From Candidatus Onthoplasma sp. (GTDB taxonomy: Bacteria; Bacillota; Clostridia; Christensenellales; UBA1242), in the NCBI GenBank assembly GCA_045578345.1, contig JAZNKB010000006.1, positions 102,911 through 166,910 on the forward strand: DNA of 64,000 bases, in the 5' to 3' direction. Below the pieces are notes generated by a model. It was not told where the DNA came from. It saw only the letters and a program-made list of their open reading frames with translations, and did not search any database. A program made the position numbers and the translations under genes. Shown piece after piece: positions 4,660-40,505 of this stretch (its first letter is position 1; every line of letters starts with the position of its first letter).

Positions 4660-4687
4660 TTGATTTTTCATTTAAATGTGGTATCAT
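4660..4687 (+). promoter_or_regulatory. sigma-A promoter placing the TSS at the ruvX ATG (leaderless candidate)
   Basis: TTGATT 4660-4665, 16 nt, TGg-TATCAT 4682-4687, 6 nt, ATG 4694. No SD. Confidence 0.5.
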
Positions 4688-4693
4688 ATAAAT

Positions 4694-5104
4694 ATGAAAG
4701 CAATGGGAATTGATTTTGGGCTTGCTCGCATTGGCATAGCCCTCAGTGATGATACAAAGTTCTTGGCATCACCTTTTGAGACATATGGAAGAAAAGGCGA
4801 TGATCTTGATATTCAGCATTTAATTAATATCATAAAAACAAAGAATGTTGATGAAATTGTGTGTGGACTTCCAATGAACATGGCAGGAGAGGAACAAGAA
4901 ATTGCCAAAAAAACTCGTGAATTTATGGCAAAATTGGCCGAAAATGTTGATATTAAAATCGAGTTTGTTGACGAGCGTCTTTCATCACTTATGGCAGAAG
5001 AAATGTTAAAGGAAACGGAGCGCGATTGGAAGAAGAGAAAAGAAAAACTAGATGCGGTGGCGGCTTCAATCATATTGCAGGATTATCTTGATGTAGCTCG
5101 TTAG
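4694..5104 (+). CDS. ruvX: Holliday junction resolvase-like protein RuvX/YqgF
   Basis: MKAMGIDFGLARIGIALSD.. motif. Sits upstream of a DUF1292 gene as in Bacilli. Track ORF starts 18 nt earlier (4676). Confidence 0.85.
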   Translation: MKAMGIDFGLARIGIALSDDTKFLASPFETYGRKGDDLDIQHLINIIKTKNVDEIVCGLPMNMAGEEQEIAKKTREFMAKLAENVDIKIEFVDERLSSLMAEEMLKETERDWKKRKEKLDAVAASIILQDYLDVAR

Positions 5105-5499
5105 TTGCCACTCATTAAACGCGCTCATTTTGGCATACTTTGGCGCAAAGTAACCAAAATTCTCGCTAAGTCGTTCAGGCAAACAAACTTCGCTTTAAAT
5201 AAAATTTGGTGTAAGTCACAATCTAATCTTCAAACAATTAAACTTTGCATTACAAAAGAGAGTTTTATCTAAGTGTTGTTAGATTTGTCTTAATTCGTTG
5301 TTATCCTGAGCGTAGTCGAAGGATCTGTATAACAAAACCTTATGAATAATTGGCAAAAACTTCAACTTCACTGAGTTTCGTTTAGAATGACAGAATGGGA
5401 TAATGAATCAAAAAAGAAATACTTTAAGATTTATAACTTACTTAAATAGCTTGATTTTCACAAACTGTTTATGTTAAAATAAAGTTTAGGAGAATTAAA

Positions 5500-5829
5500 A
5501 TGGCAGATAAAAATAATAAATTAACAGCAAAAAATCCAATTGAACAAATTTTGGATGAAAAAAATATGGATAATATTATCCTTTATGATGCAGAAAACAA
5601 ACCAATTGAGTTTGAACAAGTGGCAGTGATTCCGCTTGAGAGAACAGGACTTCTTTATGCAATCATGATTCCAGTTACCCCAATGCAAGGTGTTGGAGAA
5701 GGTGAAGGTGTACTTTTTGTTATTGATGAACTCAAAGGCACAATCGACATTGAAAGAGACGACGCAACAATTGATGAGGTGCTAACAATCTACAAAACAC
5801 TTATCGGTGATGATGCAGGAAATAAATAA
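5500..5829 (+). CDS. DUF1292 family protein (YrzB-like)
   Basis: Typical DUF1292 pattern (ILYDAENKPIEFEQVAVIPLE..LYAIM); position after ruvX. Confidence 0.8.
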   Translation: MADKNNKLTAKNPIEQILDEKNMDNIILYDAENKPIEFEQVAVIPLERTGLLYAIMIPVTPMQGVGEGEGVLFVIDELKGTIDIERDDATIDEVLTIYKTLIGDDAGNK

Positions 5830-5847
5830 TTAACAAAGGAGAAAAAT

Positions 5848-6312: not shown

Positions 6313-6313
6313 A

Positions 6314-6345
6314 ATAAAAAACAACTCATTTCGAGTTGTTTTTTC
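6314..6345. terminator. bidirectional rho-independent terminator
   Basis: A-run, ACAACTC/GAGTTGT stem, T-run, between convergent genes. Confidence 0.75.
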
Positions 6346-6348
6346 ATG

Positions 6349-6858: not shown

Positions 6859-6868
6859 AATTCTCTCC

Positions 6869-7342: not shown

Positions 7343-7438
7343 TTAAAATCTCCTTGCAATAACTTTATTGTAATATATCACGATTTTGCTTGTTTGTCAA
7401 CAACTATTATGTTAAGCTAAGAAACTTGACAAAAGTGG

Positions 7439-8468: not shown

Positions 8469-8492
8469 TTTAAAAAGGGGAGGAAAAATTTT

Positions 8493-9152: not shown

Positions 9153-9170
9153 TATCTTAGTTTGAAAGGA

Positions 9171-12824: not shown

Positions 12825-12840
12825 ATAAGCATAATTATGA

Positions 12841-12872
12841 TTGGGAGTGTGTTGACACTCTCAATTTTTTTT
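12841..12872 (+). terminator. rho-independent terminator
   Basis: 10-bp stem TTGGGAGTGT/ACACTCTCAA plus T8. Confidence 0.8.
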
Positions 12873-12880
12873 GCTATAAT
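12852..12880 (+). promoter_or_regulatory. consensus sigma-A promoter embedded in the rseP terminator; TSS at ATG 12887 (leaderless candidate)
   Basis: TTGACA 12852-12857, 17 nt, TGc-TATAAT 12875-12880, 6 nt, ATG. No SD. Confidence 0.6.
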
Positions 12881-12886: not shown

Positions 12887-14416
12887 ATGAGAGAAGGAAT
12901 TGAAATCTTAGATTTGATTTACCAAGGACTAAAATTTAAAGATGCTGTTTACACGGAAAAAACGAACACTTGTGTAATTAATTTTTTATATAATCCTGAA
13001 AATTTCACACCAAATGAAGAAAATAAAACAACAATCATCACAAAGGTTAAGGAACTAATCGGGGATTTTATCCGTTTTGAGTTGGTGTTTAAGAGTTGTC
13101 CGTTAGATAAACGTGCCATTGCGAATCATACATACACAACAATTATTAATAACTTTCCATCGATTTCCAAAAGTTTTACATACGATGATGTTTCTGTTGA
13201 AATAGAGAATTTAAAAGTAACAATTAAGTTAAAACTAACGCCATCTAGTTATGATCATGCCAAAAGCCTTAACAGAGAATCAATAATTGAAGATAAACTT
13301 AAAGATAGTTTCTTTGCGGATTTCGTTGTTTCTTTTGATAAAAAGGATGATGAAATTGAATCTTCAAATCAAATTGAAAAGAATATGGAGCTCATGGCAA
13401 GCATCAAGGAAGCAGAAGAAAAAACAGTATATGAACTATCAAATATCGCCGATATCATAGGCAAAAATGAATATTCTCTTGCAATTGATTACACAAAAGT
13501 TAAAACCGCAATTGAAAACGTTGTTATCTGCGGTGAAGTTACAACTATTCAAAAGAAAACTTATAAGCGCAAAATAACTAAAAACAAGGAAGAAACTGAA
13601 ATTGAGCGCACGTTCTATAACTTTTCAATTAAGAATGATAATAAAGTGCTTTATTGCTCAGTTTTCCCAAAACAGCATGATGAAATCAAAGGTGATTTAA
13701 TTGAAGTTGGAATGAAAATTTGTTGTTTTGGTTCTTTCCGTGAGTTTAATGGAAAACTTAATTTTACAGCGAACTCCATTGCACGTTGCGACTATAAAAG
13801 AGAAGAGATAAAATCTGGTTTTAAGCACGTAAACGAAGATTATCACACTATATTACCTGAAAAATATATTGACTATGAGCAAGCGGGGCTTTTTGATGAC
13901 GACTCTAAAACTTTTGATGGTACATATGTTGTTTTCGACGTTGAAACAACCGGGTTGGATCCACTTAAAGAAGAGATAATTGAAATTGGAGCATGTAAGG
14001 TTGTTAATGGCAGAATTGATGAAGTATTTTCAACTTTTATAAAACCATCAAAACATATTCCAAGAGAAATCACAGAGCTAACAAGCATTAATGATGACAT
14101 GGTTAAAGATGCTCCAACAATAAATTATGTGATGCCAGACTTCTATAAATTTTGTGACGGAGCAACAATTGTGGCACAAAATACAGCGTTTGACATGTCT
14201 TTCATACACAATATCTCGAAGAAGTTGTCATATAATTTTAATCATCCAACAATGGATACATTGGTAATGGCAAGACAGAAACTTCCAGGGCTTAAAAACT
14301 ATAAACTTGGAACAATAGTCGAAAAATTGAATATAAGTTTGGAAAACGCGCATAGAGCAATTGATGACGCAACAGCAACCGCCAAAGCATTTATTAAACT
14401 TATGAATATGGCATAA
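12887..14416 (+). CDS. PolC-like protein: PolC N-terminal region, OB fold and DnaQ-type 3'-5' exonuclease, with no PHP or polymerase domains
   Basis: YVVFDVETTGL, IVAQNTAFDMSFI and HRAIDDATATAKAF (Exo I-III) closely resemble the PolC exonuclease. An OB-like segment lies upstream. The gene occupies the polC position between rseP and rimP. Confidence 0.75.
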   Translation: MREGIEILDLIYQGLKFKDAVYTEKTNTCVINFLYNPENFTPNEENKTTIITKVKELIGDFIRFELVFKSCPLDKRAIANHTYTTIINNFPSISKSFTYDDVSVEIENLKVTIKLKLTPSSYDHAKSLNRESIIEDKLKDSFFADFVVSFDKKDDEIESSNQIEKNMELMASIKEAEEKTVYELSNIADIIGKNEYSLAIDYTKVKTAIENVVICGEVTTIQKKTYKRKITKNKEETEIERTFYNFSIKNDNKVLYCSVFPKQHDEIKGDLIEVGMKICCFGSFREFNGKLNFTANSIARCDYKREEIKSGFKHVNEDYHTILPEKYIDYEQAGLFDDDSKTFDGTYVVFDVETTGLDPLKEEIIEIGACKVVNGRIDEVFSTFIKPSKHIPREITELTSINDDMVKDAPTINYVMPDFYKFCDGATIVAQNTAFDMSFIHNISKKLSYNFNHPTMDTLVMARQKLPGLKNYKLGTIVEKLNISLENAHRAIDDATATAKAFIKLMNMA

Positions 14417-21324: not shown

Positions 21325-21360
21325 CTGCATGAAAAACGGCATTTTTTAATATTTTTAAAT

Positions 21361-22266
21361 ATGTTAAAAGATTATTTGGACAGAGATATTTATAATTTAA
21401 TTATCAAAAATTTTAGTTTTAATGACATCACTGAAATTAGAATGAGAGTCAATGAAAAAATCATTATAGTGATTAAGAATAAAAAGTATTTTTTAAAGAG
21501 TGACAATGGCGAATTCATTGTAATAAATCGATTTATTCTAGACAATTTCATTAAAAAAATAAGCGAAAATTCACTTTATGCATTCAATGAAAGCATAATT
21601 AATGGTTATATTACCTTAAATAAAGGCATAAGAGTTGGGCTATGTGGGACAGTTGTTATGGATGAAAACAAGGTTGTAACAATAAAAGATTTTCAATCTG
21701 TTAACATACGAATTCCACATACAATTAGAAATTGCAGTGTTCCGGCTTATGATTTTTTGGTTGATGAAAATGTGAAAAACACGCTGATTATTTCATCACC
21801 AGGATGCGGTAAGACCACATTTTTAAGAGATTTCATTTTTCAACTTAATGAGAAGAACTTGCCGATAAATATTCTAATTGCTGATGAACGAAATGAAATT
21901 TGTTCTGTTTCTAATGGTGAGATTAATCAATATTTAGGCGGTTTTTGTGATATATACACAAATTGTAGTAAAACATTTGCTTTCAAAAATGGTATAAGGA
22001 GCATGAGCCCAGACGTTATTGTGACTGATGAAATTGATTTGGATTATGACCTTAATTCACTTCTTGAAGCAATGAATTGTGGGGTTAATGTTATTGCAAC
22101 AATTCATGCAAAGGACTTAAATCAGCTGAAAAGGAAAAAGGGTTTTGATGAGATTATTGATAATAAGATTTTTTCACGTTTTGTTGTTTTGACAAATGAA
22201 GATGGCCCTGGGACATTGGCGCAAATTTATGATGAAAAACTGAATTGTTTGTTTTGCAGAATTTAG
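21361..22266 (+). CDS. spoIIIAA: stage III sporulation protein AA (ATPase)
   Basis: Walker A SSPGCGKTT; EIRMRVNE N-terminal motif; first gene of an eight-gene block. Confidence 0.85.
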   Translation: MLKDYLDRDIYNLIIKNFSFNDITEIRMRVNEKIIIVIKNKKYFLKSDNGEFIVINRFILDNFIKKISENSLYAFNESIINGYITLNKGIRVGLCGTVVMDENKVVTIKDFQSVNIRIPHTIRNCSVPAYDFLVDENVKNTLIISSPGCGKTTFLRDFIFQLNEKNLPINILIADERNEICSVSNGEINQYLGGFCDIYTNCSKTFAFKNGIRSMSPDVIVTDEIDLDYDLNSLLEAMNCGVNVIATIHAKDLNQLKRKKGFDEIIDNKIFSRFVVLTNEDGPGTLAQIYDEKLNCLFCRI

Positions 22267-22277
22267 TGGAGTGAGTC

Positions 22278-22751
22278 ATGAAATGGATTTTAATTGTTGT
22301 TTTAATTTGTGTGATTATGTTGATTGCACATTCATTAAGTGAACAATATAAAGAAAAATATGATTTTTATAATAACTTAAAAATGTTTTTGAATCAATTT
22401 AAGCTGAATCTATCGTTTAGACAAGAAAAAATTATTGACTTTTTAGAAAAAGTGAAAGCAAAAAAACAGTTCAATTTATTTATTAATTCATATAAAAACT
22501 ATTTAAAAACTAACAACTTAGATTTTAGCGAAATAAAAATACTGGACCATGAAGAAAAAAATCAAATGGAAACAATTGTAACAAACATTGGAAAACTTGA
22601 TGCAAAAAATGAAATTAATCAAATCGAAACATTCATTGTTGAAATTGACGAAAAGTTATCAAAGGCACAAAACGATAAGAATAAGTTGTGTCCAATGATT
22701 TTAAAATTATCACTTTTATTTGCAATTGGACTTGCTGTTATTTTGATTTAA
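22278..22751 (+). CDS. spoIIIAB: stage III sporulation protein AB
   Basis: Size, terminal TM segments and operon position. Confidence 0.7.
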   Translation: MKWILIVVLICVIMLIAHSLSEQYKEKYDFYNNLKMFLNQFKLNLSFRQEKIIDFLEKVKAKKQFNLFINSYKNYLKTNNLDFSEIKILDHEEKNQMETIVTNIGKLDAKNEINQIETFIVEIDEKLSKAQNDKNKLCPMILKLSLLFAIGLAVILI

Positions 22752-22767
22752 CAAAAAAGGAGAGTGT

Positions 22768-22956
22768 ATGGAAATTATTTTCAAATTAGCTGGAATTGGA
22801 CTTATAACGTCAATTGTAAACCAAATTTTAAAATATTGCGGAAAAGAAGAGATTGCACATATAACAACACTTGCAGGGTTAATTATTAGTCTTTTAATTA
22901 TGGTAGACTTGGTTGAAGATTTGTTTGTTACAGTTAAGAATTTGTTCGTGTTTTAG
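22768..22956 (+). CDS. spoIIIAC: stage III sporulation protein AC
   Basis: 62-aa two-TM protein; operon position. Confidence 0.8.
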   Translation: MEIIFKLAGIGLITSIVNQILKYCGKEEIAHITTLAGLIISLLIMVDLVEDLFVTVKNLFVF

Positions 22957-22961
22957 GTGTT

Positions 22962-23348
22962 ATGATTGAATTATTAAAAATTTTAGCAGTGGCATTGGTC
23001 ACGGTTTTTGCACATATGCTTATAAAGCAAACAAGGCCAGAAATTGCCATGTTGATTACAATTGTTGGAAGTATATTAATTATCGTTATGGCAGTTAATG
23101 TGTTAAACTCTGTCATAGTTTCTTTTTATCAAATTTTTCATAAAACAGGTGTTGAAAGTACATTATTAACCCCACTACTTAAAATTGTTGCAATTGGATA
23201 CATTGCGGAATTTGGAGCAAACATATGTTTAGATGCTGGAGCGAGCAGCGTTGCAGATAAAATTTTGTTTTCAGCAAAACTGATTATTCTTGTTATTGCA
23301 ATGCCAATTATAACAACAGTCATTGACATGGTGGTGGCCCTTTTATGA
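22962..23348 (+). CDS. spoIIIAD: stage III sporulation protein AD
   Basis: 128-aa polytopic protein; operon position. Confidence 0.8.
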   Translation: MIELLKILAVALVTVFAHMLIKQTRPEIAMLITIVGSILIIVMAVNVLNSVIVSFYQIFHKTGVESTLLTPLLKIVAIGYIAEFGANICLDAGASSVADKILFSAKLIILVIAMPIITTVIDMVVALL

Positions 23349-24577
23349 TAAGAATGAAAAGAAAACATTTTATTGAACAACGTAGTAACAATGTAATAAT
23401 AATACTCATGATTGTTTTAGTTTCTTTGTTCTCAATTATATCACCACTTGAAACCTTTTGTGCATCTGAAAAACTTTATTCGCTAAACGAAGATCTAAAT
23501 AGTGCAGTTGTTGATGAATTAAAAGAAATCGATTTTTCCGGTTTCAACGATGTTATTTACGACTTTAATTCAAAGGATACCAATATATTTTCAATTGAAA
23601 GCGTAAAAGCTAAAGTATATTCCATTATTTCAGGTGAAAGTGCGGTTGATTATTCAAATTTTTTCGCAAGTTTATGTTCAAATCTTGTTGAGATGGTTGT
23701 AAAATATTTACCGATCATTTCGATCATCATTGGAATAGGTGTGATAAGCAATTTGTTAAACGGAATTAAAAGTAAATTTAATGAAAAATCAACAAGTAAT
23801 TTAATTAGCTTAGTTTGTTTCTTATCAGTTTGTGTATTGGTTATCGGAATTGTAACAAACTTGTCAAAATCAACAGGTAAAGCAATAGACACCATGGTGT
23901 CGCAAATGAACACGTTGTTTCCAATTTTGTTAACACTTATGATAGGTCTTGGAGCAAATGCCAGTGCAGGAGCTTTTAAACCAATTGTGGCAATAATTTC
24001 AACATATGTTGCAGATTTTTTTAATTTCTTTATTTTGCCATTGTTTATGATAAGTTTTGTGTTTGGAATTATTTCTAATTTGTCAGACAACATTAAAATT
24101 GATAAGTTTAGCTCATTCATTTCAAGTTTATTTAAATGGAGCGTTGGACTTGTTTTTACTTTATTTTTTGCTATTTTTTCATTGCAAGGAATTGCGGTCG
24201 GAAGTTTTGATAGCCTTAGCATAAGAACAACCAAATATACAATAAAAAGTTACGTTCCAGTGATGGGAGGTTTTTTGTCTGATGGAATGGATTTAATAAT
24301 GTCAAGCACATTACTGATTAAAAATGCTGTTGGCTTAGTTGGAGTTTTAATGATTATTTCAACGATAATTTCGCCTTTATTGGAAATTGTTGTTTTCAGT
24401 TTAATGTTAAAACTCGTTTCGGCAGTTTTGCAACCACTTGGCAACAGCAAAACTTCAAATTTCTTGTCATCAACTTCAAAATCAATAACAATGCTTTCAA
24501 GTGCAATAATAGCAATTGGATTTATGTATTTAATTTCAATAGGTTTGGTGATGACAACTTCTAATGTGGTGGTGTGA
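23345..24577 (+). CDS. spoIIIAE: stage III sporulation protein AE
   Basis: 410-aa polytopic protein with signal-like N-terminus; operon position. Confidence 0.85.
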   Translation: MIRMKRKHFIEQRSNNVIIILMIVLVSLFSIISPLETFCASEKLYSLNEDLNSAVVDELKEIDFSGFNDVIYDFNSKDTNIFSIESVKAKVYSIISGESAVDYSNFFASLCSNLVEMVVKYLPIISIIIGIGVISNLLNGIKSKFNEKSTSNLISLVCFLSVCVLVIGIVTNLSKSTGKAIDTMVSQMNTLFPILLTLMIGLGANASAGAFKPIVAIISTYVADFFNFFILPLFMISFVFGIISNLSDNIKIDKFSSFISSLFKWSVGLVFTLFFAIFSLQGIAVGSFDSLSIRTTKYTIKSYVPVMGGFLSDGMDLIMSSTLLIKNAVGLVGVLMIISTIISPLLEIVVFSLMLKLVSAVLQPLGNSKTSNFLSSTSKSITMLSSAIIAIGFMYLISIGLVMTTSNVVV

Positions 24578-25050
24578 TGGCAGGTTATATATTAAGTATT
24601 TTAGGAATTGTGATTGCAGGTGTTTTTATTGATATTATTGTTCCAAGTGGGAGTATAAGCAAATATATAAAGGGAATATATTCTATTTTCGTTGTAGCAG
24701 TGATAATAAGCCCTGTGATCAAATTTTTAAACAAATCACACGACTTCACAATCAAATATGAAGAATATAATATCAATGATAATTTGCTTAAATATATTTA
24801 TACTATGCGAGCAACATCACTAGAAACAAATATTGAAAAAGTCTTAAATGAAGAAGGATTTTCCGGAGTCGACATAATAATCAAGTTTTCGATTGAAAAT
24901 AACGAATTAAAATATAATTCATGTTATGCAAATTTAAAAAATTTGGAAATTAGCGCGGACAAGCAGCATATAAATAAGTATGAATTCATTATGGAAATCA
25001 TTAAGGAGAATACAAACTTAACCGAAGAGGAGATAATCATTGATGAGTGA
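24574..25050 (+). CDS. spoIIIAF: stage III sporulation protein AF
   Basis: Two N-terminal TM segments (..IIVPSGSISKYIKGIYSIFVV..); operon position. Confidence 0.7.
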   Translation: MMAGYILSILGIVIAGVFIDIIVPSGSISKYIKGIYSIFVVAVIISPVIKFLNKSHDFTIKYEEYNINDNLLKYIYTMRATSLETNIEKVLNEEGFSGVDIIIKFSIENNELKYNSCYANLKNLEISADKQHINKYEFIMEIIKENTNLTEEEIIIDE

Positions 25051-25489
25051 TAAAGAAAAACAGCCAACAGTAACTTGGCTCAGTAAACTAAAGAACATAA
25101 AACACATTGAAATTTATATTGCTATAATTTTTATTGTGATAATAGTACTGATTTATATGTCTACAAACAAATCAAAAGAAAAAACTCAATTGAATTTATC
25201 AAATGATATGTCCATCACAAGCTATATTGAAAGAATTGAACAAAACCTCGAAGAAAGTTTGTCAAACATTGCTGGTGTTAGTAACGTCAGAGTTATGATA
25301 ACCCTAAATTTAAACGACATGGAAGTTGTTGATGATAAAATAAGCATTACAACATTCCCAGAAATTAAAGGTGTTTTAGTTACAGCAAAAGGTGTAAATA
25401 ACACTGCCAATAAAATGAAAGTTCTTCATGCAATTCAAGCTGTGGTTGATGTGACAAATGGAAACATTGAAATTTTATCAAGTGAATAG
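25040..25489 (+). CDS. spoIIIAG: stage III sporulation protein AG
   Basis: N-terminal TM; C-terminal GVSNVRVMITLN...IKGVLVTAKG pattern. Confidence 0.75.
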   Translation: MMSDKEKQPTVTWLSKLKNIKHIEIYIAIIFIVIIVLIYMSTNKSKEKTQLNLSNDMSITSYIERIEQNLEESLSNIAGVSNVRVMITLNLNDMEVVDDKISITTFPEIKGVLVTAKGVNNTANKMKVLHAIQAVVDVTNGNIEILSSE

Positions 25490-25497
25490 GAGGATTT

Positions 25498-25986
25498 ATG
25501 AAAACATTATCAAAAAAGAAAAAAATTATTATTTTATCTGCTATGGTAGCATTATTATTAGTAACAGGTTATGTTAATGTGGCGCTTAATAGTTCGTTAT
25601 CAAGCGGAGCAACTCAAACAAGTGCCAGCACAACGTCAGCGAACTTCTACACAAACTATAGATCTGAACGTGAAGCAACAAGAACACAAGAAATTCAATT
25701 TTATGATTCAATAATTGCCAGCGCAACATCAAGCGAAGAAGCAAAAGTTGAAGCAGAAGCTAACAAAATAGCTCTCATTACGCAAATGGAAAAAGAATTA
25801 GTAACTGAAGGAATTATTCGTGGAAAGGGCTTTTCAGATGCAATTGTAACATCATCTTCATCAAATGTTAATGTCTTTGTTAAATCAGCAGAATTGACTT
25901 CTGCCGAAGTTGCTCAAATCACAACAGTTGTAACAGAACAATTGAACGTTGAACTCGACAAAATTATTATCATCCCTTCAGAATAA
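25498..25986 (+). CDS. spoIIIAH: stage III sporulation protein AH
   Basis: N-terminal TM, YRSEREATR segment and C-terminal GFSDAIV..VNVFVKS pattern. Confidence 0.7.
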   Translation: MKTLSKKKKIIILSAMVALLLVTGYVNVALNSSLSSGATQTSASTTSANFYTNYRSEREATRTQEIQFYDSIIASATSSEEAKVEAEANKIALITQMEKELVTEGIIRGKGFSDAIVTSSSSNVNVFVKSAELTSAEVAQITTVVTEQLNVELDKIIIIPSE

Positions 25987-26023
25987 TGAATTGAAAGATT
26001 TACAATTTATTTATTTCAAATCA

Positions 26024-28229: not shown

Positions 28230-29646
28230 ACAATTTGTAACAGATATTGCAGATATTAATACAGATTTTGCACAATGGTATACTGACGTTGTGTTAAAGA
28301 CTGACATGGTTGATTATGGACCAGTTAAAGGAACAATGGTTATTAAACCATATGGCTATGCAATATGGGAAAACATTCAAAACTATTTAAATAAGGAATT
28401 TAGAAAACAAGGAGTTGAAAATGCATATTTTCCAATGCTAATTCCTGAAAGTTTTTTAATGAAAGAAGCAGAACATGTTGAAGGTTTTGCTCCAGAAGTT
28501 GCAGTTGTAACTCATGCTGGTGGTGAAGAATTAAATGAAAAACTAATAATTCGCCCAACAAGTGAAACAATTATATGCGACATGTATTCAAAATGGATTA
28601 AATCTTATCGTGATTTACCTGTTAAAATGAATCAATGGTGTAATGTATTAAGATGGGAAAAAACAACTAGACCTTTCTTAAGAACAAGTGAATTCTTATG
28701 GCAAGAAGGACATACTGTTCAATCGTGTCCAGAAGATGCAGAAAATGATGCGAAAACAATGTTAAAGGTTTACACAGATTGTTTAAAAAATCTTTTAGCC
28801 ATTCCAACCCTCACAGGAAGAAAAACAGAGAATGAAAAATTTGCTGGCGCATTAGTAACATATAGCATGGAAGCAATCATGAAAGACGGAAAGTGTTTGC
28901 AATCTGGAACAACTCATGATTTGGGTCAAAATTTTGCTAAAGCAAGCAATATTAAGTTCTTAAATAAAGAAGGTCAACTTGAATATGGATATTCAACAAG
29001 TTGGGGTGTTAGCACAAGACTTATTGGTGCTTTGGTTATGGTTCATGGTGATGAACGTGGCCTTAGAATGCCGCCAAATGTTGCTCCAATTCAAACGGTT
29101 ATAATTCCAATTGCAAGCAAAAAAGAAGGTGTTATTGAAAAGTGTGAAGAAGTTAAAAACATTCTTGAAACTGCAGATTTAAGAGTTAAACTTGACAATT
29201 CAAATAACACTCCAGGTTGGAAATTTAATGAATATGAAATGAAAGGAGTGCCACTTCGTCTTGAAATTGGCCCAAGAGATATTGAAAACGGTGTTGCAAC
29301 AGCTGTAAGACGCGACACTCATGAAAAAGTACAATTAAATTTAAGTAACATAAAAGAAGAGGTTGAAAACTTACTTAAAGATATCCAAGAAAACATGTAT
29401 AATCAAGCAGTTGAAAATTTCAATTCTGCAATCGTAGAAACTGAAAATTATGATGATATGGTAAATGCTGTAAACAACAAAAAGGTTGTTTTGTCATATC
29501 ATTGCGGAAATTCAAACTGTGAAGAAAAAATTCGTCAAAATACAACAATTAAAACTCGAGTTATACATTCTATGGATAACGCTCATAAATGTGTTTATTG
29601 TGGTAAAGAGAGTAAATATAGAGTGTACTTTGGGAAACAATATTAA
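28210..29646 (+). CDS. proS: proline--tRNA ligase, archaeal/eukaryotic-like type
   Basis: FAQWYTDVVLKTDMVDYGPVKGTMVIKPYG N-terminus; class II motifs; C-terminal Cys cluster; 478 aa with no bacterial insertion domain. Confidence 0.92.
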   Translation: MKTMENKQFVTDIADINTDFAQWYTDVVLKTDMVDYGPVKGTMVIKPYGYAIWENIQNYLNKEFRKQGVENAYFPMLIPESFLMKEAEHVEGFAPEVAVVTHAGGEELNEKLIIRPTSETIICDMYSKWIKSYRDLPVKMNQWCNVLRWEKTTRPFLRTSEFLWQEGHTVQSCPEDAENDAKTMLKVYTDCLKNLLAIPTLTGRKTENEKFAGALVTYSMEAIMKDGKCLQSGTTHDLGQNFAKASNIKFLNKEGQLEYGYSTSWGVSTRLIGALVMVHGDERGLRMPPNVAPIQTVIIPIASKKEGVIEKCEEVKNILETADLRVKLDNSNNTPGWKFNEYEMKGVPLRLEIGPRDIENGVATAVRRDTHEKVQLNLSNIKEEVENLLKDIQENMYNQAVENFNSAIVETENYDDMVNAVNNKKVVLSYHCGNSNCEEKIRQNTTIKTRVIHSMDNAHKCVYCGKESKYRVYFGKQY

Positions 29647-29647
29647 A

Positions 29648-29672
29648 AGCAAGAAATAATTCTTGCTTTTTT
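29648..29672 (+). terminator. rho-independent terminator
   Basis: AGCAAGAA/TTCTTGCT stem plus T6. Confidence 0.8.
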
Positions 29673-29743: not shown

Positions 29744-29771
29744 TTGAAAATTAAATTAAATATGGTATAAT
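29744..29771 (+). promoter_or_regulatory. sigma-A promoter leaving at most a 2-3-nt leader
   Basis: TTGAAA, 16 nt, TGg-TATAAT 29766-29771, 9 nt, ATG 29781. No SD. Confidence 0.5.
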
Positions 29772-29780: not shown

Positions 29781-30467
29781 ATGAAAGATTTGTTTCGAAC
29801 ATTTCAACGAATTCCGGAAAAGAACAGGACAATAGCATATGGAATTATGGCGTTGCTTAAAAACCTGTGTTATTTTGCATTTAAAATCATTGTTGGTATT
29901 GTATTTAAAACACCTTTGCTTATCGCCGTTGCTATATACAACCTATTAATTGGACTTGTTAAAGCAAACTGTTCAAGAGGTTTATGGAAAAATAAAGATG
30001 ATTTAAAAGATCTCAAGACATACATACGCGGTGGAGCAATATTGTTAATTTCAAGTATCTTTTATATTATTTATACTGCAAATCTAGTTGGAAATCCATA
30101 TGGTATTGAATACAACATGGTTATTGCAATTATGATTGCCTCATTTGCAACTTATAGTATGACAGTCTCAATTATGGGGTTATTTAACACACGAGGCAAA
30201 ACAATGTTAATTAAAGAATATAAGTTTACAAACTTTGCAACAGCATTGAATAACATTGTTTTAACACAAATGGCGCTTTTATCTTTGTTTCCTGTAAAAA
30301 ACATGCACTTTTACAATGCATTAGTTGGAATTATTAATGGTGTTGTAATTTTAGGCTTTGGATTATACCTTGTAATTAATGGATTGATTCAATTACGAGT
30401 TTACACAACAGGGATAACCAATAAGAAATCAAACAAAACTCAAGTTGAAAACAATCAACAGCAATAA
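29781..30467 (+). CDS. polytopic membrane protein, unknown function (228 aa)
   Basis: Five or six hydrophobic segments; no family recognised. Confidence 0.5.
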   Translation: MKDLFRTFQRIPEKNRTIAYGIMALLKNLCYFAFKIIVGIVFKTPLLIAVAIYNLLIGLVKANCSRGLWKNKDDLKDLKTYIRGGAILLISSIFYIIYTANLVGNPYGIEYNMVIAIMIASFATYSMTVSIMGLFNTRGKTMLIKEYKFTNFATALNNIVLTQMALLSLFPVKNMHFYNALVGIINGVVILGFGLYLVINGLIQLRVYTTGITNKKSNKTQVENNQQQ

Positions 30468-30875: not shown

Positions 30876-30884
30876 TGATATAAT
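30876..30884 (+). promoter_or_regulatory. extended -10 element placing the TSS at the comEC ATG (leaderless candidate)
   Basis: TGa-TATAAT 30879-30884, 7 nt, ATG 30892. No SD. Confidence 0.45.
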
Positions 30885-30891: not shown

Positions 30892-32406
30892 ATGAAAGAG
30901 AGATGGTTTAATTATCGACCGTTATGTTTGGTGTTTGGATTCCTTCTTTTAGGAAGTGTTTTTTCATTCTATGCGCCTAAAAACACCGTTCTCACAATAA
31001 TTACAACTATATCAATTGCTGTTGCATTAACGATTATTGCAATATTAAAAAAGAAACCTCAATATGTGCTTGTTCCTGTTATTGCCTTTGGAGTTGGTTT
31101 GGGATTATATAATCTTGCAGTATTTAATTTTAATAAATCCGTAGATTACACACCTTCAAGCATACAAGCAAGAATTTACAATATTGTTGACGAATATGAT
31201 GGAATGATAAAAGTTGAAGCTGATAGTTTAAAATTTGACGATAAAAAAATTAATGATAACATAATAATATACATCTATGACAATGACGGACTTTTTGAAA
31301 ACATTGAAATTGGAAGCTTAATTGAATTTGAACCATACAGATTTTATAAAAGTGATTTATTCTATTACGACACACCTAGTTCAAGTTTATATGAAGACGA
31401 TTTAAAATATACAACGAGTGCTTTCATGATTAATGTTAAACATATATCGACAGATAAAACATTTGCAGAAGCAATAAGGGAGAGAGTTAAAGATAATCTT
31501 GAGCTTGGACTAACAAATGAGAATGCCGAAATTGCCTATTCAGCATTGTTTGGAGATAAGGATTTATTATCAGATAAGCAATATTCAGTGTATAAACTTT
31601 CTGGTGTTGCGCATCTGCTTGCTGTATCTGGTTTGCACGTTGGAATTATTGTTGGAATTCTAAATCTTATTTTTAAGAAATTAAAGGTAAAAGGTTGGCT
31701 TAAATTTTTTGTCACTGCAGTTTTCTTAATGCTTTATATGTACATTTGTGATTATTCAGTTTCAATAATAAGAGCAACAATCATGTCTTTAATTCTATTG
31801 TTATCTCAAATTCTTCATAAGCAATATGATAGTTTTAATTCAATATCTGTGGCGGGAATTGTGATATTTTTAATTAATCCGTTCTGTGTGTTTGATGTTG
31901 CGTTCTTGCTAAGTTTTTCATGCGTGATTGGAATAACAATGCTTTACCGCCCAATAAGAAGGGCTTTAGCAAAAACTCATATGAATGCAAAAATTAGAGA
32001 CGCTGCTGCAATAAGCTTGGCAACAAGCATTGCAATTGTTATGATTATGGCTTTCTATTTTAGAACACTCAACGTGATATCTTTGATTGCAAATGTGATT
32101 TTAATTCCAATTTTCACGGTTGCATTTAGTATCGTTTTTGTGGTTTCAATTGTATCAATACCGTTTTCAATTGTTTCATATGTGTTGATGCCAGTTGATT
32201 ACATATTCAATTTAATTAACTTGATTGCAACAACTCTTGGCAATCTTTCAATTTCTAACTTTAATACAATTGAATTTAACTATATTGCAATTATAATATA
32301 TTTTGTTCTTTTGTTATTTATAAGTCGTTTTTGCACCGCAAAATATCAATATAAAATCGTTTCAGCATTGCCAATTGTTGCTTTGTTGTTTTATTGTCTG
32401 ATATAA
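30892..32406 (+). CDS. comEC: competence protein ComEC/Rec2 (membrane channel domain only)
   Basis: LSGVAHLLAVSGLHVG motif; polytopic; upstream of holA as in Bacillus. Confidence 0.85.
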   Translation: MKERWFNYRPLCLVFGFLLLGSVFSFYAPKNTVLTIITTISIAVALTIIAILKKKPQYVLVPVIAFGVGLGLYNLAVFNFNKSVDYTPSSIQARIYNIVDEYDGMIKVEADSLKFDDKKINDNIIIYIYDNDGLFENIEIGSLIEFEPYRFYKSDLFYYDTPSSSLYEDDLKYTTSAFMINVKHISTDKTFAEAIRERVKDNLELGLTNENAEIAYSALFGDKDLLSDKQYSVYKLSGVAHLLAVSGLHVGIIVGILNLIFKKLKVKGWLKFFVTAVFLMLYMYICDYSVSIIRATIMSLILLLSQILHKQYDSFNSISVAGIVIFLINPFCVFDVAFLLSFSCVIGITMLYRPIRRALAKTHMNAKIRDAAAISLATSIAIVMIMAFYFRTLNVISLIANVILIPIFTVAFSIVFVVSIVSIPFSIVSYVLMPVDYIFNLINLIATTLGNLSISNFNTIEFNYIAIIIYFVLLLFISRFCTAKYQYKIVSALPIVALLFYCLI

Positions 32407-32417
32407 TAGGAGAGAAT

Positions 32418-33332
32418 ATGAAATTTATCGAATTAAACAAAAACATTAAAGAAATGGTTAAGCCTTTATATAATCTAAAAGGTGATGATTTTTACTTGGT
32501 TAAGCAAGCTCTATCAAACATTAAATCATATCTTATTAAGGATTTAGAAGAATTCAACTTTGTTAATGTAGATGCCGATAAAATGAAAAAAGAGCAAGCT
32601 TACGAGCAAATTGCAACACTCCCAATGGTAAATGACTATAGATTAGTTGTTTTCAATAATCCTAATCAGGAAATTGTGAAATTTCTTAATAAATTTGATT
32701 TTGAAAATGAATCAACGGTTGTGGTGTGTATCCAAGCTGAAGGTTTAACTGTTGGTGAGGTTGTTGATTGTTCAAAACTTGATAGAAATGATTTAACTAA
32801 ATATATTTTAAATTATCTTTCTAAATGTAATTTATCAATTGAGGAACAGGCTTTGGACTACATTATTGATGCCACAAATGGCAATATGACAAAAATAGTT
32901 AACGAATTAAACAAAATCTCATCATATTGTGTGGATTTGGAAACTGTAACAATGAATATTGTTACAAACCTGGTTGCAAATTCTCAAGAATATGCAATTT
33001 ATAACCTTACAAATGCTATTGATACGAAAAACTTTTCAAACTATCAAAAAATTTTAAATGATTTAATAAAATCGCAATCTCAGTCTGAAATTTTTGCATA
33101 TATGGGTAAATATTTCAAAAGAATGCAATATATTGCTTTGAGTAAGGATGATGATGAACTGTCTAAAATTTTAAATATAAAACCATATGCAGTTGCAATG
33201 TCGAGAAAAAGCGTTGCAAGTAATGGTGTGAAATATTATATCGGCTTATATGAAAAGTATATCGAATTGGATCATAAAATTAAATCTGGTGAGATAACAG
33301 CCACAAATGCTTTATATGAACTCATTTTTTAG
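32418..33332 (+). CDS. holA: DNA polymerase III delta subunit
   Basis: TAGGAGAG RBS before ATG 32418. Length and comEC-holA-rpsT synteny. Confidence 0.8.
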   Translation: MKFIELNKNIKEMVKPLYNLKGDDFYLVKQALSNIKSYLIKDLEEFNFVNVDADKMKKEQAYEQIATLPMVNDYRLVVFNNPNQEIVKFLNKFDFENESTVVVCIQAEGLTVGEVVDCSKLDRNDLTKYILNYLSKCNLSIEEQALDYIIDATNGNMTKIVNELNKISSYCVDLETVTMNIVTNLVANSQEYAIYNLTNAIDTKNFSNYQKILNDLIKSQSQSEIFAYMGKYFKRMQYIALSKDDDELSKILNIKPYAVAMSRKSVASNGVKYYIGLYEKYIELDHKIKSGEITATNALYELIF

Positions 33333-34316: not shown

Positions 34317-34440
34317 TACAAACCTCCAATTCGATATCAAGTATAACAAAGTTTGTTTTAAAAATCAAGTGCTTTGACAATATTTTCTCTAAATTGTGCT
34401 ACTTTTTGTCAACTTGCGGGTTGAAAGCATAAACTATATT

Positions 34441-35112
34441 ATGTTAAATTGTGAAAATCAAACAATAGCAATCATAGATAGTGGAATTGGTGGAGTTTCA
34501 ATTTTACGGAAATTGATTGATGAATACAAAAATGGAAATTATATTTACTTTGCAGATAATCTATATATGCCATATGGTAATAAAACACATAAATGGCTAA
34601 ACAATAGGATAAGTCAGATTATCACCACTTTAAAGATAAACTATCATGTTACACAGGTAATTATTGCTTGCAACACAGCGTCCGCGTGTTTAGACTTTGA
34701 AATTCCTAATGTAACCAAAATGAAGTTTGATGACTCAAAAGTGTATTTCGCAACAAAACTAACCAAAAAGAACTTACCAAACGTTGAAGTTATTGCAGAC
34801 GGAACTTTGGCAAAGCAAATTGAATTAAACATATTTAATCATAAAAAGATTGATAAGATAATAAAAAAGCATGTAAAGGTACATAAACTATATAATTTTC
34901 AAGAATTTATGCTTGGTTGCACTCATTATGAACTGGTAAAAGACTATTTTGAAAGATATTGTCCTTCAACAACGATTATTAACAACAGTGAATTAATTAT
35001 TGACTTAATAAATATTAAACCCACAATAGTGGATGAACTTAATGTGGTTATAATCCTTTCACAAAAAAATAAAGATTTAGAAGATAAAATTTACAAACTT
35101 ATAAGGAGATAA
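34441..35112 (+). CDS. murI: glutamate racemase
   Basis: IAIIDSGIGGVS, IIACNTASA and LGCTHYELV motifs; start taken at ATG 34441. Confidence 0.85.
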   Translation: MLNCENQTIAIIDSGIGGVSILRKLIDEYKNGNYIYFADNLYMPYGNKTHKWLNNRISQIITTLKINYHVTQVIIACNTASACLDFEIPNVTKMKFDDSKVYFATKLTKKNLPNVEVIADGTLAKQIELNIFNHKKIDKIIKKHVKVHKLYNFQEFMLGCTHYELVKDYFERYCPSTTIINNSELIIDLINIKPTIVDELNVVIILSQKNKDLEDKIYKLIRR

Positions 35113-36797: not shown

Positions 36798-39093
36798 TAC
36801 TGACCAACCATTTCTTTTTGTTTAAAACAATTTCGTTATTTAAAAGTGTTATTAAATAGTCTTTTGGTTTGATTTTCTTGATATCACTAATGATAATATC
36901 ATCTTGATTCGTTATGTAATATTCAATTGTATCAAAATTGAAAACGTCACTATCTTTCACAACTATATTGTCATTTTTATTTTTTATTGTTTCCAATTTC
37001 GATAATCCTTTTGATGTTTGTTTATAGACATTATATTCTTGATTTCTCTTAGTATGAAAACTTAAAATTACACCATATTTGTTTATTTCAATATCTAACT
37101 TAAAATTTTCATCATTAGAAGAAATTTTAGGAATGTTATCACTTTTAAAATAATCATAAGATATATATCTTTCAACGGAGTGGTTTGGTTGCAAAAGAAC
37201 TTGCTGATTTTCAAGTTCAACAACATCATAACCAACTTTTTGAACTCCTAAAGGAATTTCAAAATCGTTCGGTGGTTTGCTTGTGTATAAATAAGCACAT
37301 ATTTGCTTATTGATTTCAGTTGGTTGACCAGAGCTTAACAAACTTGAATGTAAGGTTTTGTTGTTAACATCAGCAATCCATGTTAAAATAGAATGCTCAG
37401 ATGTGTATGAAATATTATATAGGTCAGTGTTTGCATTTTCAACACTTGCAGTTCCTGTTTTGCTGGCAATTGGCAAATTTAATGAATTAAATTTTTTAGC
37501 AGTCCCTGTCTTTGCACAGTCTTTTAATATATCTGTCAACAAAAAGCAACTTTCAGCGCTCACAACCTGTGTTGAATAATTTTCGTGAGAGTAGATTACA
37601 TTTCCTTTCTCATCCAAAATCTTATTAACAAAACACAAACTTGTATAACGTCCTTGATTGGCAATTGTGTTGTAAGCAGCAAGCAAATCCAACATATTGA
37701 CACCATTTTTAACGGATCCCAAAGCTAAGCTTAAATTTAAATCACTATTTGATATATTGATGCCAAGGTTACTTAACATTTCTTTTGATTTTCTAACTCC
37801 GAGATAGTCTAATGCTTTAACAGCTGGGATGTTAAGTGAATTTGAAAGAGAATCTCTAACTGAAACATAGCCACGATATGTGTTATCTGCATTTTTAGGA
37901 CAAAATCCTGCATAATTTATTTCTTCATCAAGAATTACTGATGCAGGGGACAATATGTTGTGTTCAAAACATGGCAAATACACTGCAAGTGGTTTTAAGG
38001 TGGATGCTGGCTGTCTAGTTAAATTATGTAAATTAAAGCAAGAATTGGCATAATATGCCAAAACATGACCATCTGTGTTGCAAACAACAGACATACTATC
38101 TAAAGTTGAATTTGTTAAATTTTCAGCTGTGTTTAAAACTTCAGAATTTATTTCCTGAATTTGATTTTGAAGATCATCTTGTTTGAATGTTATAATTTGA
38201 TAGTTTTTATTAATTAAATCTCTTTCGGTTATATTTAACAGTCTGCAAGCCTCAAAAATTGCCTCTTTTTCATAATTATTATTTTCTTTTGATTTTGATA
38301 GTTGTATGTCTTGTTTAACTATATCTGCGTATTCATTTTTTGATATATTTCCATTTTGAAACATACTCCTGGCAACAATATTTTTTCTTTTGATTGCATT
38401 TTCGTAATTTGATAGGGGAGAATATAATCCAGGAGATTTGATTAACCCTGCCAAACAGCAAGCCTCATTTAATGTTAAATCTTTGGCAGATTTATCAAAA
38501 TAAATTTTGCTTGCATTTTCAATCCCATAAGCATTTGAACCAAAGTAAATTGTGTTTAAATACATTTCTAAAATCTCATCTTTTGAGAACTTTTTTTCCA
38601 TTTTAACCGATAAAACAACTTCTTTAATTTTTCGAGAATATGTTTTTTCATTCGATAAAAGAGCGTTTTTTACTAGTTGTTGACTAATTGTTGATGCTCC
38701 TTGAGATTTTGATTTCGTGTTTAAATTTACCATTGCTGACTTTAAAATTCTTTTTAAATCAAAACCATTGTGAGAGTAGAAACGTTTATCTTCTATATCA
38801 ATAAAAGCATCCTTAACATATTCTGGAAGTTCATCAATGTCAATAATTGACCTATTAGTGTTGTATAAAGTATTGTCGCTTCCTGTTGCAGAATAGACCT
38901 TAATACCATTGTTTAAGCTGGTTAATTTTTCTATATTCAAGTTATATTTATTGTAAAATACAGTAACAGTACAAACTAAAGAAAGAAACATTATTCCTAT
39001 AATAATTGATAGGACAAGACATATCTTTCTTATTTTTTGGCCAACATTCATCACAATATTATTTGCAAAATTAAATAAATAATTAATAATCAA
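36784..39093 (-). CDS. bifunctional class A penicillin-binding protein (glycosyltransferase/transpeptidase)
   Basis: EDKRFYSHNGFD and RKIKE GT51 motifs; STLKP transpeptidase motif; N-terminal TM. Start uncertain (TTG 39093 or ATG 39051). Confidence 0.9.
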   Translation of the reverse strand: MIINYLFNFANNIVMNVGQKIRKICLVLSIIIGIMFLSLVCTVTVFYNKYNLNIEKLTSLNNGIKVYSATGSDNTLYNTNRSIIDIDELPEYVKDAFIDIEDKRFYSHNGFDLKRILKSAMVNLNTKSKSQGASTISQQLVKNALLSNEKTYSRKIKEVVLSVKMEKKFSKDEILEMYLNTIYFGSNAYGIENASKIYFDKSAKDLTLNEACCLAGLIKSPGLYSPLSNYENAIKRKNIVARSMFQNGNISKNEYADIVKQDIQLSKSKENNNYEKEAIFEACRLLNITERDLINKNYQIITFKQDDLQNQIQEINSEVLNTAENLTNSTLDSMSVVCNTDGHVLAYYANSCFNLHNLTRQPASTLKPLAVYLPCFEHNILSPASVILDEEINYAGFCPKNADNTYRGYVSVRDSLSNSLNIPAVKALDYLGVRKSKEMLSNLGINISNSDLNLSLALGSVKNGVNMLDLLAAYNTIANQGRYTSLCFVNKILDEKGNVIYSHENYSTQVVSAESCFLLTDILKDCAKTGTAKKFNSLNLPIASKTGTASVENANTDLYNISYTSEHSILTWIADVNNKTLHSSLLSSGQPTEINKQICAYLYTSKPPNDFEIPLGVQKVGYDVVELENQQVLLQPNHSVERYISYDYFKSDNIPKISSNDENFKLDIEINKYGVILSFHTKRNQEYNVYKQTSKGLSKLETIKNKNDNIVVKDSDVFNFDTIEYYITNQDDIIISDIKKIKPKDYLITLLNNEIVLNKKKWLVSITPR

Positions 39094-39137
39094 TCAAGTT
39101 CGTATAATCATTTTGATTTTTTTGTGGCGAAAAATAG

Positions 39138-39166
39138 TTGAAAATTATAGGATTTTATATTATAAT
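39138..39166 (+). promoter_or_regulatory. consensus sigma-A promoter placing the TSS at the miaB ATG (leaderless candidate)
   Basis: TTGAAA 39138-39143, 17 nt, TATAAT 39161-39166, 7 nt, ATG 39174. No SD. Confidence 0.55.
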
Positions 39167-39173
39167 ATAAAAC

Positions 39174-40505
39174 ATGAGTAATTATAATGGTAAATTGTAT
39201 CACGTGGTAACATATGGTTGCCAAATGAATGTCCATGAAAGCGAAAAAATTCGTGGCATCTTATATTCATTAGGGATGAATGAAACGGAAGACATTGAAA
39301 AGGCAAATGTCGTTGTTTTTAACACTTGTTGCATTAGAGAAGGAGCGGAAGACCGAGCATACAATAACATTATGGCATTAAGAAAATGGAAAGAAAAAAA
39401 TCCGAATAATGTCATTGTTTTGTGTGGTTGTATGCCACAACAAAAAGATGGAAAATACAACATGAAAAACAAGCTTCCATTTGTTGATATCATTGTTGGA
39501 ACACATAACATCAATTCAATTGGAAAACATCTTCTTGATTTTAGCAAAAACAAACAACGAATTCTTGAAATTTTGGATTCACCAAATGCTTCAATGGATA
39601 TTGAAGGCTGCATAAGAGATGACAAAACTAATGCCTATGTTAACATAATTTATGGTTGCAATAAATTCTGCACATATTGCATTGTTCCATATGTCCGCGG
39701 TAGAGAAAAAAGCAGACCAATTGATGAAATATACAAGGAAGTTAAGGATTTAGTTCAAAATCGAAATTATAAATATATAACATTACTTGGACAGAATGTT
39801 AATTCATATGGTAAAGATTTGGAAGAAAAAACATCCTTTAGTGAATTATTAAGTTATCTTTGCCAAATTGAGGGAGACTTTAAAATTAAGTTTATGACTT
39901 CACATCCAATGGACTTTGGTGATGATTTGATTAAAGTTATGAAAACGGAAACAAAAGTTGCAAAAGCACTTCATTTGCCAGTTCAGTCAGGTAGTAGCGC
40001 AATCTTGAAGAAAATGAACAGACATTATGATTCAAAGCATTACATGAAATTAATTAAAAAAGTTAAACGGGCAATTCCAAACATTTCACTTTCAACTGAT
40101 ATTATCGTAGGCTTTCCTGGAGAAACTGAAAATGATTTTAATAAAACAATGAAACTAATTAAAAAAGTTAAATATGATCAAGTATTTGCTTTTATGTATT
40201 CAAAACGTTCGGGAACTCCAGCAGCAACTTTTGATGACCAAATTGATGAAGAAGTTAAAAACGAAAGAGTTAATAAATTGTTAAGACTCCAAAAAATCAT
40301 TTCTAAAGATATGTTAAACAAGAACATTGGAAAAACATATAACTGTTTAATTAAACATATCAATGGAGTTGCGGTCGGATTAACTGATGGTGGAAAAGAA
40401 ATTTACATTCCAACTTATAAATTTAAAAACCAAAACTATTTTATTGATGTGAAAGTTGAAGAAATCAGAAACCACAAACTTTCAGGAGTTATTGATGAGC
40501 GTTAA
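39174..40505 (+). CDS. miaB: tRNA (i6A37) methylthiotransferase
   Basis: Radical-SAM motif CNKFCTYCIVP; UPF0004 N-terminus; TRAM C-terminus. Confidence 0.93.
   Translation: MSNYNGKLYHVVTYGCQMNVHESEKIRGILYSLGMNETEDIEKANVVVFNTCCIREGAEDRAYNNIMALRKWKEKNPNNVIVLCGCMPQQKDGKYNMKNKLPFVDIIVGTHNINSIGKHLLDFSKNKQRILEILDSPNASMDIEGCIRDDKTNAYVNIIYGCNKFCTYCIVPYVRGREKSRPIDEIYKEVKDLVQNRNYKYITLLGQNVNSYGKDLEEKTSFSELLSYLCQIEGDFKIKFMTSHPMDFGDDLIKVMKTETKVAKALHLPVQSGSSAILKKMNRHYDSKHYMKLIKKVKRAIPNISLSTDIIVGFPGETENDFNKTMKLIKKVKYDQVFAFMYSKRSGTPAATFDDQIDEEVKNERVNKLLRLQKIISKDMLNKNIGKTYNCLIKHINGVAVGLTDGGKEIYIPTYKFKNQNYFIDVKVEEIRNHKLSGVIDER

Follow-up and report, generated by a model that had tools for sequence, protein, structure and literature searches.

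How is translation begun on genes whose start codon directly follows a promoter and which lack a Shine-Dalgarno (SD) sequence? The question is raised by a 64-kb stretch of Candidatus Onthoplasma DNA (contig JAZNKB010000006.1, positions 102,911 to 166,910), here called the window, which has a G+C content of ~30%, uses the standard bacterial code and contains few overlapping reading frames. A sequence-only reading had flagged five of its genes, namely ruvX, an exonuclease gene, a membrane-protein gene, comEC and miaB. These genes are predicted, with a probability of about 0.8, to be expressed from mRNAs that have no leader or one of at most ~4 nt, as a regular feature of the lineage beside SD-led initiation. 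The proposal that the lineage routinely uses leaderless translation is thereby supported as a strong sequence-based prediction, through a promoter-to-start spacing that is conserved in up to 11 related genomes and a peak at 6-8 nt in the histogram of these distances.

Re-verification reproduced all five promoter-ATG sites at every coordinate, each with a sigma-70-type -10 element ending 6-9 nt before the ATG. The features concerned are as follows.

4609..4639, plus strand: terminator of the upstream sigma-factor-like gene, a 14-pair stem then a T run, with 54 nt to the ruvX ATG
4660..4687, plus strand: ruvX promoter, with -35 TTGATT at 4660-65, a 16-nt spacer that includes TG at 4679-80, and -10 TATCAT at 4682-87
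4694..5104, plus strand: ruvX, 136 aa, ATG 6 nt past the -10, no SD
12839..12866, plus strand: terminator hairpin of the uppS-cdsA-rseP operon, overlapping the -35 of the next promoter, whose spacer is formed by the T tract
12852..12880, plus strand: promoter of the exonuclease gene, with TTGACA at 12852-57, a 17-nt spacer, TG at 12872-73 and TATAAT at 12875-80 (TGcTATAAT)
12887..14416, plus strand: gene whose 509-aa product carries a DEDDh exonuclease domain at its C-terminus, ATG 6 nt past the -10, no SD
29645..29670, plus strand: terminator after proS
29744..29771, plus strand: membrane-protein promoter, with TTGAAA at 29744-49, a 16-nt spacer, TG at 29763-64 and TATAAT at 29766-71 (TGgTATAAT; 11/12 plus TG)
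29781..30467, plus strand: membrane protein, 228 aa, ATG 9 nt past the -10, no SD
30876..30884, plus strand: extended -10 of comEC, TGaTATAAT (TG at 30876-77, TATAAT at 30879-84), with a weak -35
30892..32406, plus strand: comEC, 504 aa, ATG 7 nt past the -10, no SD, with an in-frame stop directly before the ATG
39138..39166, plus strand: miaB promoter, with TTGAAA at 39138-43, a 17-nt spacer and TATAAT at 39161-66
39174..40505, plus strand: miaB, ATG 7 nt past the -10, no SD, heading the run miaB-mutS-mutL and onward

The TGn extension is present in four of the five flagged genes, miaB being the exception. Of the promoter-like sites listed for the first 20 kb, only the one at 12852-12880 matches at 12/12 positions, and those at 29744-71 and 39138-66 are among five 11/12 matches in a scan of 20-40 kb. 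The reported lack of SD sequences was borne out by duplex energies with the anti-SD, which range from -3.3 to +2.7 kcal/mol across the five genes. The contrast drawn with internal genes carrying AGGAGG-type sites also stands: gene starts were refined across the window, and 51 of the 63 reach a dG of -5 kcal/mol or below, the threshold used here for SD-led starts, mostly through GGAG cores. When three further candidates described below are added, the eight span a dG of -3.3 to +2.9, compared with values of -5 or lower for the 51 other starts, and in six of the eight the -10 ends 5-7 nt before the ATG.

Could the start codons be misplaced, with the true starts being downstream in-frame codons that carry SD sites, or codons lying upstream? 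Automatic callers do disagree on some orthologues (P0014 is called at 527 aa, others at 517-533 aa), and ruvX has an in-frame ATG at 4676, inside its promoter. On the other side, positions 1-133 of the Pfam RuvX profile match residues 1-133 of the reading frame that starts at 4694, so that Pfam position 1 and all orthologues favor 4694, and the UPF0004 domain of MiaB begins at residue 9. SD-led starts further downstream were ruled out, since for each of the five genes the protein is conserved among relatives back to residue 1-2 while the DNA changes synonymously. The next in-frame start candidates of the flagged genes are likewise without SD sequences, and upstream extensions would traverse the promoter itself. 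This explanation is contradicted and is very improbable. All window candidates start with ATG, and the relatives include two GTG exceptions (the exonuclease gene in L164 and a penicillin-binding protein (PBP) gene in L006). Two calls for exonuclease orthologues deserve separate mention: P0014 of L162 (10001-11584) is extended upstream through its own promoter, and in L164 (10001) the call is placed on an ATG abutting the -10, while a GTG 6 nt further aligns with the N-terminus of the family. Several cluster representatives measure 517-533 aa, the usual length being 505-509 aa.

The relatives were drawn from two sources. A MiaB-based scan of species-representative genomes provided L001-L011 (MiaB identity 68-79%) and placed the window among uncultured Clostridia metagenome-assembled genomes (MAGs) and Candidatus Onthoplasma. 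Homologues of the exonuclease protein provided seven more syntenic loci, L161-L167 (65-88% identity), plus L081; the last is the one true orthologue from a metagenome scan with this protein, whose other 79 loci match only the DEDDh domain of unrelated proteins. Gene order is conserved among the loci of the relatives. Onthoplasma is filed under Christensenellales in the NCBI taxonomy and is placed by a 2025 paper in the GTDB family UBA1242, which includes gut bacteria with genomes of <1 Mb (PMC12306168).

Among these genomes the promoter and its distance to the start codon are conserved together. In ruvX, TGn and TAT(A/C)AT (TAAACT in L165) are followed by exactly 6 nt and ATG in 8/8 genomes; a gap-free alignment (A1) leaves as invariant upstream positions the TTT of the -35, the TG, the TA...T of the -10 and two A's in the 6-nt gap. 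One invariant A lies just past the -10, and the other four gap positions vary. The exonuclease gene has TTGACA, 17 nt, TATAAT or TATATT, 6-8 nt and ATG in seven genomes, and 6 nt with GTG in L164; the spacing of 6-8 nt thus occurs in eight of nine genomes, the most distant of which, L167, has a 24-nt leader with AAAGGA. For comEC, TGnTATAAT with 6-8 nt and ATG is found in 6/8 genomes, and in L008 and L009 (34-37% identity) the gene has a ~30-nt leader, an SD and a TTG start. The membrane-protein spacing is 7-10 nt in all four genomes considered (the window and the three relatives that hold the gene). For miaB, TTGAAAA, 16-17 nt and TATAAT are followed by 6-10/11 nt and ATG in 11/11 family genomes (L011 depending on the register), and the outgroups L012, L014, L015 and L023 have ordinary SD sites. 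With protein identities of only 50-80%, intergenic DNA under no constraint would be expected to have become largely randomized. The promoter elements nevertheless stand out as the conserved columns of two alignments (A1, A2), and the length of the gap is kept while its sequence is not, as expected if the A of the AUG must be +1.

The spacing itself suggests how these genes might be expressed. A -10 hexamer occupies positions -12 to -7, and the canonical distance from the -10 to +1 is 6 nt; with a 6-nt gap the A of the ATG would therefore fall on +1. Sigma-A-type promoters, usually with an extended -10, would drive the candidate genes, and with the -10 ending 5-7 nt before the ATG, RNA polymerase would start at, or 1-3 nt from, the A of the start codon. 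Such transcripts would lack an SD, and their 5' leader would be absent or ~4 nt long at most; translation would then have to be leaderless, begun when a ribosome carrying initiator tRNA recognizes an AUG at the 5' end. For ruvX, the exonuclease gene, comEC, miaB and two of the further candidates (a murI-like gene and a class A PBP gene) we infer both the transcription start and the translation route, and predict mRNAs that are truly leaderless or have a leader of at most 1 nt. Of all of these, ruvX is the strongest candidate for a truly leaderless mRNA. The membrane-protein gene at 29781 (9 nt), whose leader would be 2-3 nt, and miaB in several relatives (9-10 nt) probably have leaders of 2-4 nt. 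SD sites serve operon-internal genes and highly expressed first genes (rpsB, frr, efp, rimP-nusA-infB), and the leaderless candidates are mostly genes of DNA metabolism, of the cell envelope or of tRNA modification that are assumed to be weakly expressed. The pairing of a leader with an SD, and of no leader with no SD, fits two alternative modes of initiation.

The association between promoter and start codon was examined against chance. A -10 box, taken as at least 5/6 positions matched 5-10 nt upstream of the start, precedes six of the 12 SD-less starts and three of the 51 SD-led starts (Fisher p = 8.6e-4). When strict promoters are required, defined by TGn or by a -35 box matching at least 5/6, five of the 12 SD-less starts have one 5-10 nt upstream; 5000 dinucleotide shuffles average 0.16 and never exceed 3. 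Among long open reading frames (ORFs) at all family loci, the distance from a strict promoter to the first ATG is 6 nt in 17 cases, 7 nt in six, 8 nt in four and 10 nt in seven, and past 12 nt the histogram is flat, with 0-3 per bin and a mean of about 1; as the orthologues are not independent, it shows the shape of the distribution and carries no p-value.

Several observations nevertheless weigh against a leaderless interpretation, and the first of these would equally favor accident, in which the AT richness of intergenic DNA puts TATAAT-like hexamers close to ATGs by chance and the striking cases are picked. Hexamers resembling a -10 (at least 5/6) are frequent in DNA of 30% G+C, with a background of ~1% per position. 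Loose promoter scans come close to the shuffles (99 against 90±7, and 158 against 120±12), and 18 of the 24 pairs of a strict promoter and an ATG in the window are not gene starts, 16 belonging to trivial ORFs and two being internal in-frame ATGs. Because the loose scans are only marginally above the shuffles, the signal resides in position relative to the ATG and not in promoter counts. Accident is contradicted by the five observed cases where 0.16 are expected, by a spacing kept across 8-11 genomes at this level of protein divergence and by the sharp peak of the histogram at 6 nt, and it has the smallest probability of the explanations considered, close to nil.

Other observations of this kind concern single genes and the scale of the phenomenon. 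The -35 box of comEC is weak and an A stands at position -1, and the boxes of the PBP gene and of spoIIIAA, the third further candidate, depart from TATAAT. Spacings of 9-11 nt (29781; miaB in L001-L004, L008 and L009) imply leaders of 2-4 nt, to which strict recognition of a 5'-terminal AUG may not apply. Among genes of the related loci without a window homologue, which served as a substitute for an out-of-sample test, one of 19 clusters shows the signature, and the genome-wide fraction is therefore uncertain. The transcription starts are placed by consensus geometry alone, and read-through from upstream operons could add leadered transcripts.

In an alternative explanation the mRNAs are leadered and SD-less. 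Transcription would start farther upstream or arrive by read-through, the ribosome would find an internal AUG in an A/U-rich, unstructured region, and the TATAAT-like element would be a promoter for something else or simply part of the A/U-rich context. The internal genes rseP (11658), xseA (26860) and truB (19733) also lack an SD, so some SD-independent initiation on leadered mRNA must occur, and termination at the hairpin ahead of the exonuclease gene could be leaky. What is conserved, however, is a sigma-70 promoter (a -35, a spacer of 16-18 nt, TGn and a -10) and not general A/U richness, and the ATG is held at the canonical -10-to-+1 distance. Where orthologues have leaders, these carry an SD. 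Moreover, ruvX, the exonuclease gene and 29781 are directly preceded by terminators, and just upstream of comEC, miaB, the PBP gene and the murI-like gene the neighbor is on the opposite strand; these genes therefore need promoters of their own, and to the latter four read-through cannot supply transcripts. The geometry also argues against transcription starts farther upstream, as there would be little room for another promoter. Leadered mRNAs are thus unlikely, though less so than misplaced starts or accident, and mRNAs with no leader or a very short one are the preferred explanation.

The leaderless-type class appears to be broader than the five flagged genes. Three more genes of the window lack an SD and have a conserved geometry: the murI-like gene (34441), the class A PBP gene (39051) and spoIIIAA (21361).

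34406..34435, plus strand: promoter of the murI-like gene, with TTGTCA, an 18-nt spacer and TAAACT
34441..35112, plus strand: glutamate-racemase-like (murI-like) gene, ATG 5 nt past the -10, no SD, first of a pair with glmS
39049..39063, minus strand: start of the class A PBP gene, with AATAAT at 39063-39058, then 6 nt, then ATG at 39051, no SD
21348..21363, plus strand: start region of spoIIIAA, ATG at 21361 without SD, ~36 nt past the T tract of the efp terminator, with a box resembling AATATT/AATAAT 7 nt upstream

In the murI-like gene, TAAAYT or TACATT with 5 nt and ATG is found in 8/8 genomes. Its protein (34441-35112) has no Pfam match at E <= 0.001, and the glutamate racemase motifs DSGIGG, ACNTAS and GCTHYE are present. 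As the gene precedes glmS, the pair is probably a cell-wall precursor operon. The PBP box is conserved as (G/A)ATAAT in nine genomes, being TTGCAAATAAT in most of them and TATACT in L007; the spacing is 6 nt with ATG in eight genomes and 7 nt with GTG in L006. The PBP and miaB genes lie back to back, and their promoters, one on each strand and each abutting its own ATG, share a 122-bp intergenic region (39052-39173), a spacer that is almost wholly promoter. spoIIIAA lacks an SD in 8/8 genomes and is best regarded as a weaker candidate; its promoter, we assume, may depend on a sporulation sigma factor. The spoIIIA operon (AA, AB, AC, AD, AE and onward) lies in 21361-26000 and is conserved in relatives, and these small-genome gut bacteria therefore appear to keep sporulation genes.

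Further comparison of orthologues suggests switching, in that a gene which is SD-led in one genome can be leaderless in a close relative. The start of holA in the window is a hybrid of the two.

32399..32420, plus strand: start of holA, with TGaTATAAT at 32399-32407, directly followed by AGGAGAG at 32408-14, and ATG at 32418

With TGaTATAAT 10 nt from its ATG, holA (32418) had looked like a leaderless candidate, and it was rejected because it carries AGGAGAG. The orthologues in L001, L002, L004 and L011 have TGgTATAAT, 6 nt and ATG without an SD, so that, with L008 and L009 included, three forms are found among the relatives: leaderless-type, the hybrid of the window and plain SD-led. A second case is a gene of the integrase family (Phage_integrase domain), whose promoter is conserved as TTTTTACGCAAAGATnTGnTATAAT. 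In L010 its ATG stands 6 nt after the promoter, with neither leader nor SD, and in the window and in L001, L002 and L003 there is a leader of 20-41 nt with an SD. The leaders of this gene always have an SD (the weakest, in L003, is AAGGA with a dG of -5.1), and its leaderless-type form has none. A conserved block, TTTTTACGCAAAGAT, is found upstream of this promoter (51830-51890 in the window; also in L001, L002, L003 and L010) and could be an operator.

Other starts did not enter the class. rseP (11658) has TGcAATAAT 11 nt upstream and was left ambiguous, as the box lies within coding sequence, at the conserved 3' end of cdsA, and an SD is present in some relatives. The SD-less appearance of 3808, 14637 and 9982 disappeared when these starts were refined to 3856, 14709 and a TTG at 10018, and that of 40456, 49036, 53123 and 53872 when they were refined to 40495, 48970, 53156 and 53902; all of the refined starts have SD sites.

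How frequent might such genes be? The window contains ~30 transcription units, seven or eight of which have leaderless-type geometry, and at the related loci 31 of 266 called genes (12%) meet the strict criterion. A wider proposal can be made: the reduced-genome family UBA1242 (Christensenellales, including Candidatus Onthoplasma) would have independently evolved a dual system of initiation like that of actinobacteria, with about a quarter of its transcription units leaderless and with single genes often flipping between the two forms in close relatives, through insertions or deletions between a conserved promoter and the ATG. For this proposal the odds are about even. Dual initiation may have arisen as a side effect when intergenic DNA was compacted in the course of genome reduction.

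The remark of the sequence-only reading that leaderless mRNAs are uncommon in Firmicutes agrees with the literature (PMC6028130; PMC3160421; PMC8237595). In GeneMarkS-2, group C genomes are those in which operon-first genes start ~6-8 nt from a Pribnow box and ribosome binding sites (RBS) are found elsewhere; an estimated 25-50% of their operons are leaderless, and the group is found in Actinobacteria, in Deinococcus-Thermus and in 3.4% of Firmicutes (PMC6028130). For the human gut, modelling put 717 of 4930 species-level genome bins (SGBs) in group C (PMC8153819). The lineage of the window resembles group C in its promoter-start peak at 6-8 nt, in the GGAG sites of its internal genes and in the SD-type RBS found on internal genes and leadered first genes. 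The share of ~7-8 in 30 units, taken from a 64-kb sample only, may be set against the 25-50% of group C. Unlike a high-G+C actinobacterium, the host here is a member of the low-G+C Clostridia, and its box is a full TGnTATAAT where that of group C is TAnnnT.

Closer in phylogeny are the genes described by Zheng et al. (2011), in which TAtAAT preceded by TG is found near the starts of 2.4-16.6% of genes in Lactococcus/Streptococcus and Mycoplasma (PMC3160421). Those genes also belong to low-G+C Firmicutes, have TG and TAtAAT close to the start and form a minority beside dominant SD-led initiation. The genes of the window differ in belonging to Clostridia (Christensenellales), a class without a report there, and in the nature of the evidence, which is conservation of spacing among orthologues and switching of forms here and a genome-wide motif there. 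In Clostridioides difficile, six of 1,646 mapped transcription start sites (TSSs), ~0.4%, were leaderless, meaning a 5' UTR of <10 nt (PMC8237595). That species is of the same class, Clostridia, whereas the window suggests a far higher leaderless share, predicted here and experimental in C. difficile. The classical leaderless mRNAs are those of lambda cI and Tn1721 tetR, in which a 5'-terminal AUG is the sole signal and AUG is strongly preferred. In contrast to these isolated cases in SD-dominated genomes, the class described here is recurrent and consists of housekeeping genes in which it is evolutionarily maintained. Literature mentioning Onthoplasma, in part of which the text was searched for the word 'leaderless', yielded no treatment of leaderless mRNAs.

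The mechanism is thus already known, though rare in the phylum, and no new mechanism is revealed. The interest of these genes is moderate; it lies in where they occur phylogenetically, in how frequent they appear to be and in how clearly orthologues switch form. If the prediction is true, with perhaps 20-25% of operons leaderless in an order related to that of the well-studied C. difficile, a phylum dominated by SD use can still give rise to heavy use of leaderless mRNAs. Gene callers built on the expectation of an SD misplace the starts of leaderless-type genes, as in L162 and L164, and a dual start model would therefore improve the annotation of abundant uncultured gut MAGs. Orthologue pairs with one SD-led and one leaderless member offer a natural means of examining how genes pass from one form to the other and at what cost to expression.

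Several smaller observations concern the flagged genes and their surroundings. At the exonuclease gene a stop codon, terminator, promoter and ATG are packed into 62 nt, and the arms of the hairpin at 12839-12866 show compensatory changes among relatives (GAGAGTG/CACTCTC in some, GAATTGT/ACAATTC in others). The gene had been called PolC-like, a label that holds for the C-terminal DEDDh exonuclease domain but not for the rest of the 509-aa protein: only residues ~340-508 match PolC or DnaQ exonuclease domains, and the N-terminal ~340 residues have no Pfam or PDB sequence match. Sources name the protein variously as '3'-5' exoribonuclease' or 'PolC-type DNA polymerase III'. The gene lies between rseP and rimP-nusA, which is presumably the place of polC in Bacillus subtilis. 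The product of 29781 was rightly described as a membrane protein, as it has at least four hydrophobic segments.

The leaderless geometry had also been thought to bear on micro-ORFs at 47.4-47.9 kb. That idea gained no support, since the stretch contains no ATG at the proper distance from a strict promoter. The surrounding gap of ~1.2 kb (47037-48214) contains only micro-ORFs, none with this geometry. An Rfam scan of the window returned two tRNAs only, and nothing credible at 46.9-48.3 kb. Within the gap, a non-coding block at 47152-47312 has 73-77% DNA identity in seven relatives and contains the palindrome TTTGCGCAAA twice, at 47195-47204 and 47212-47221.

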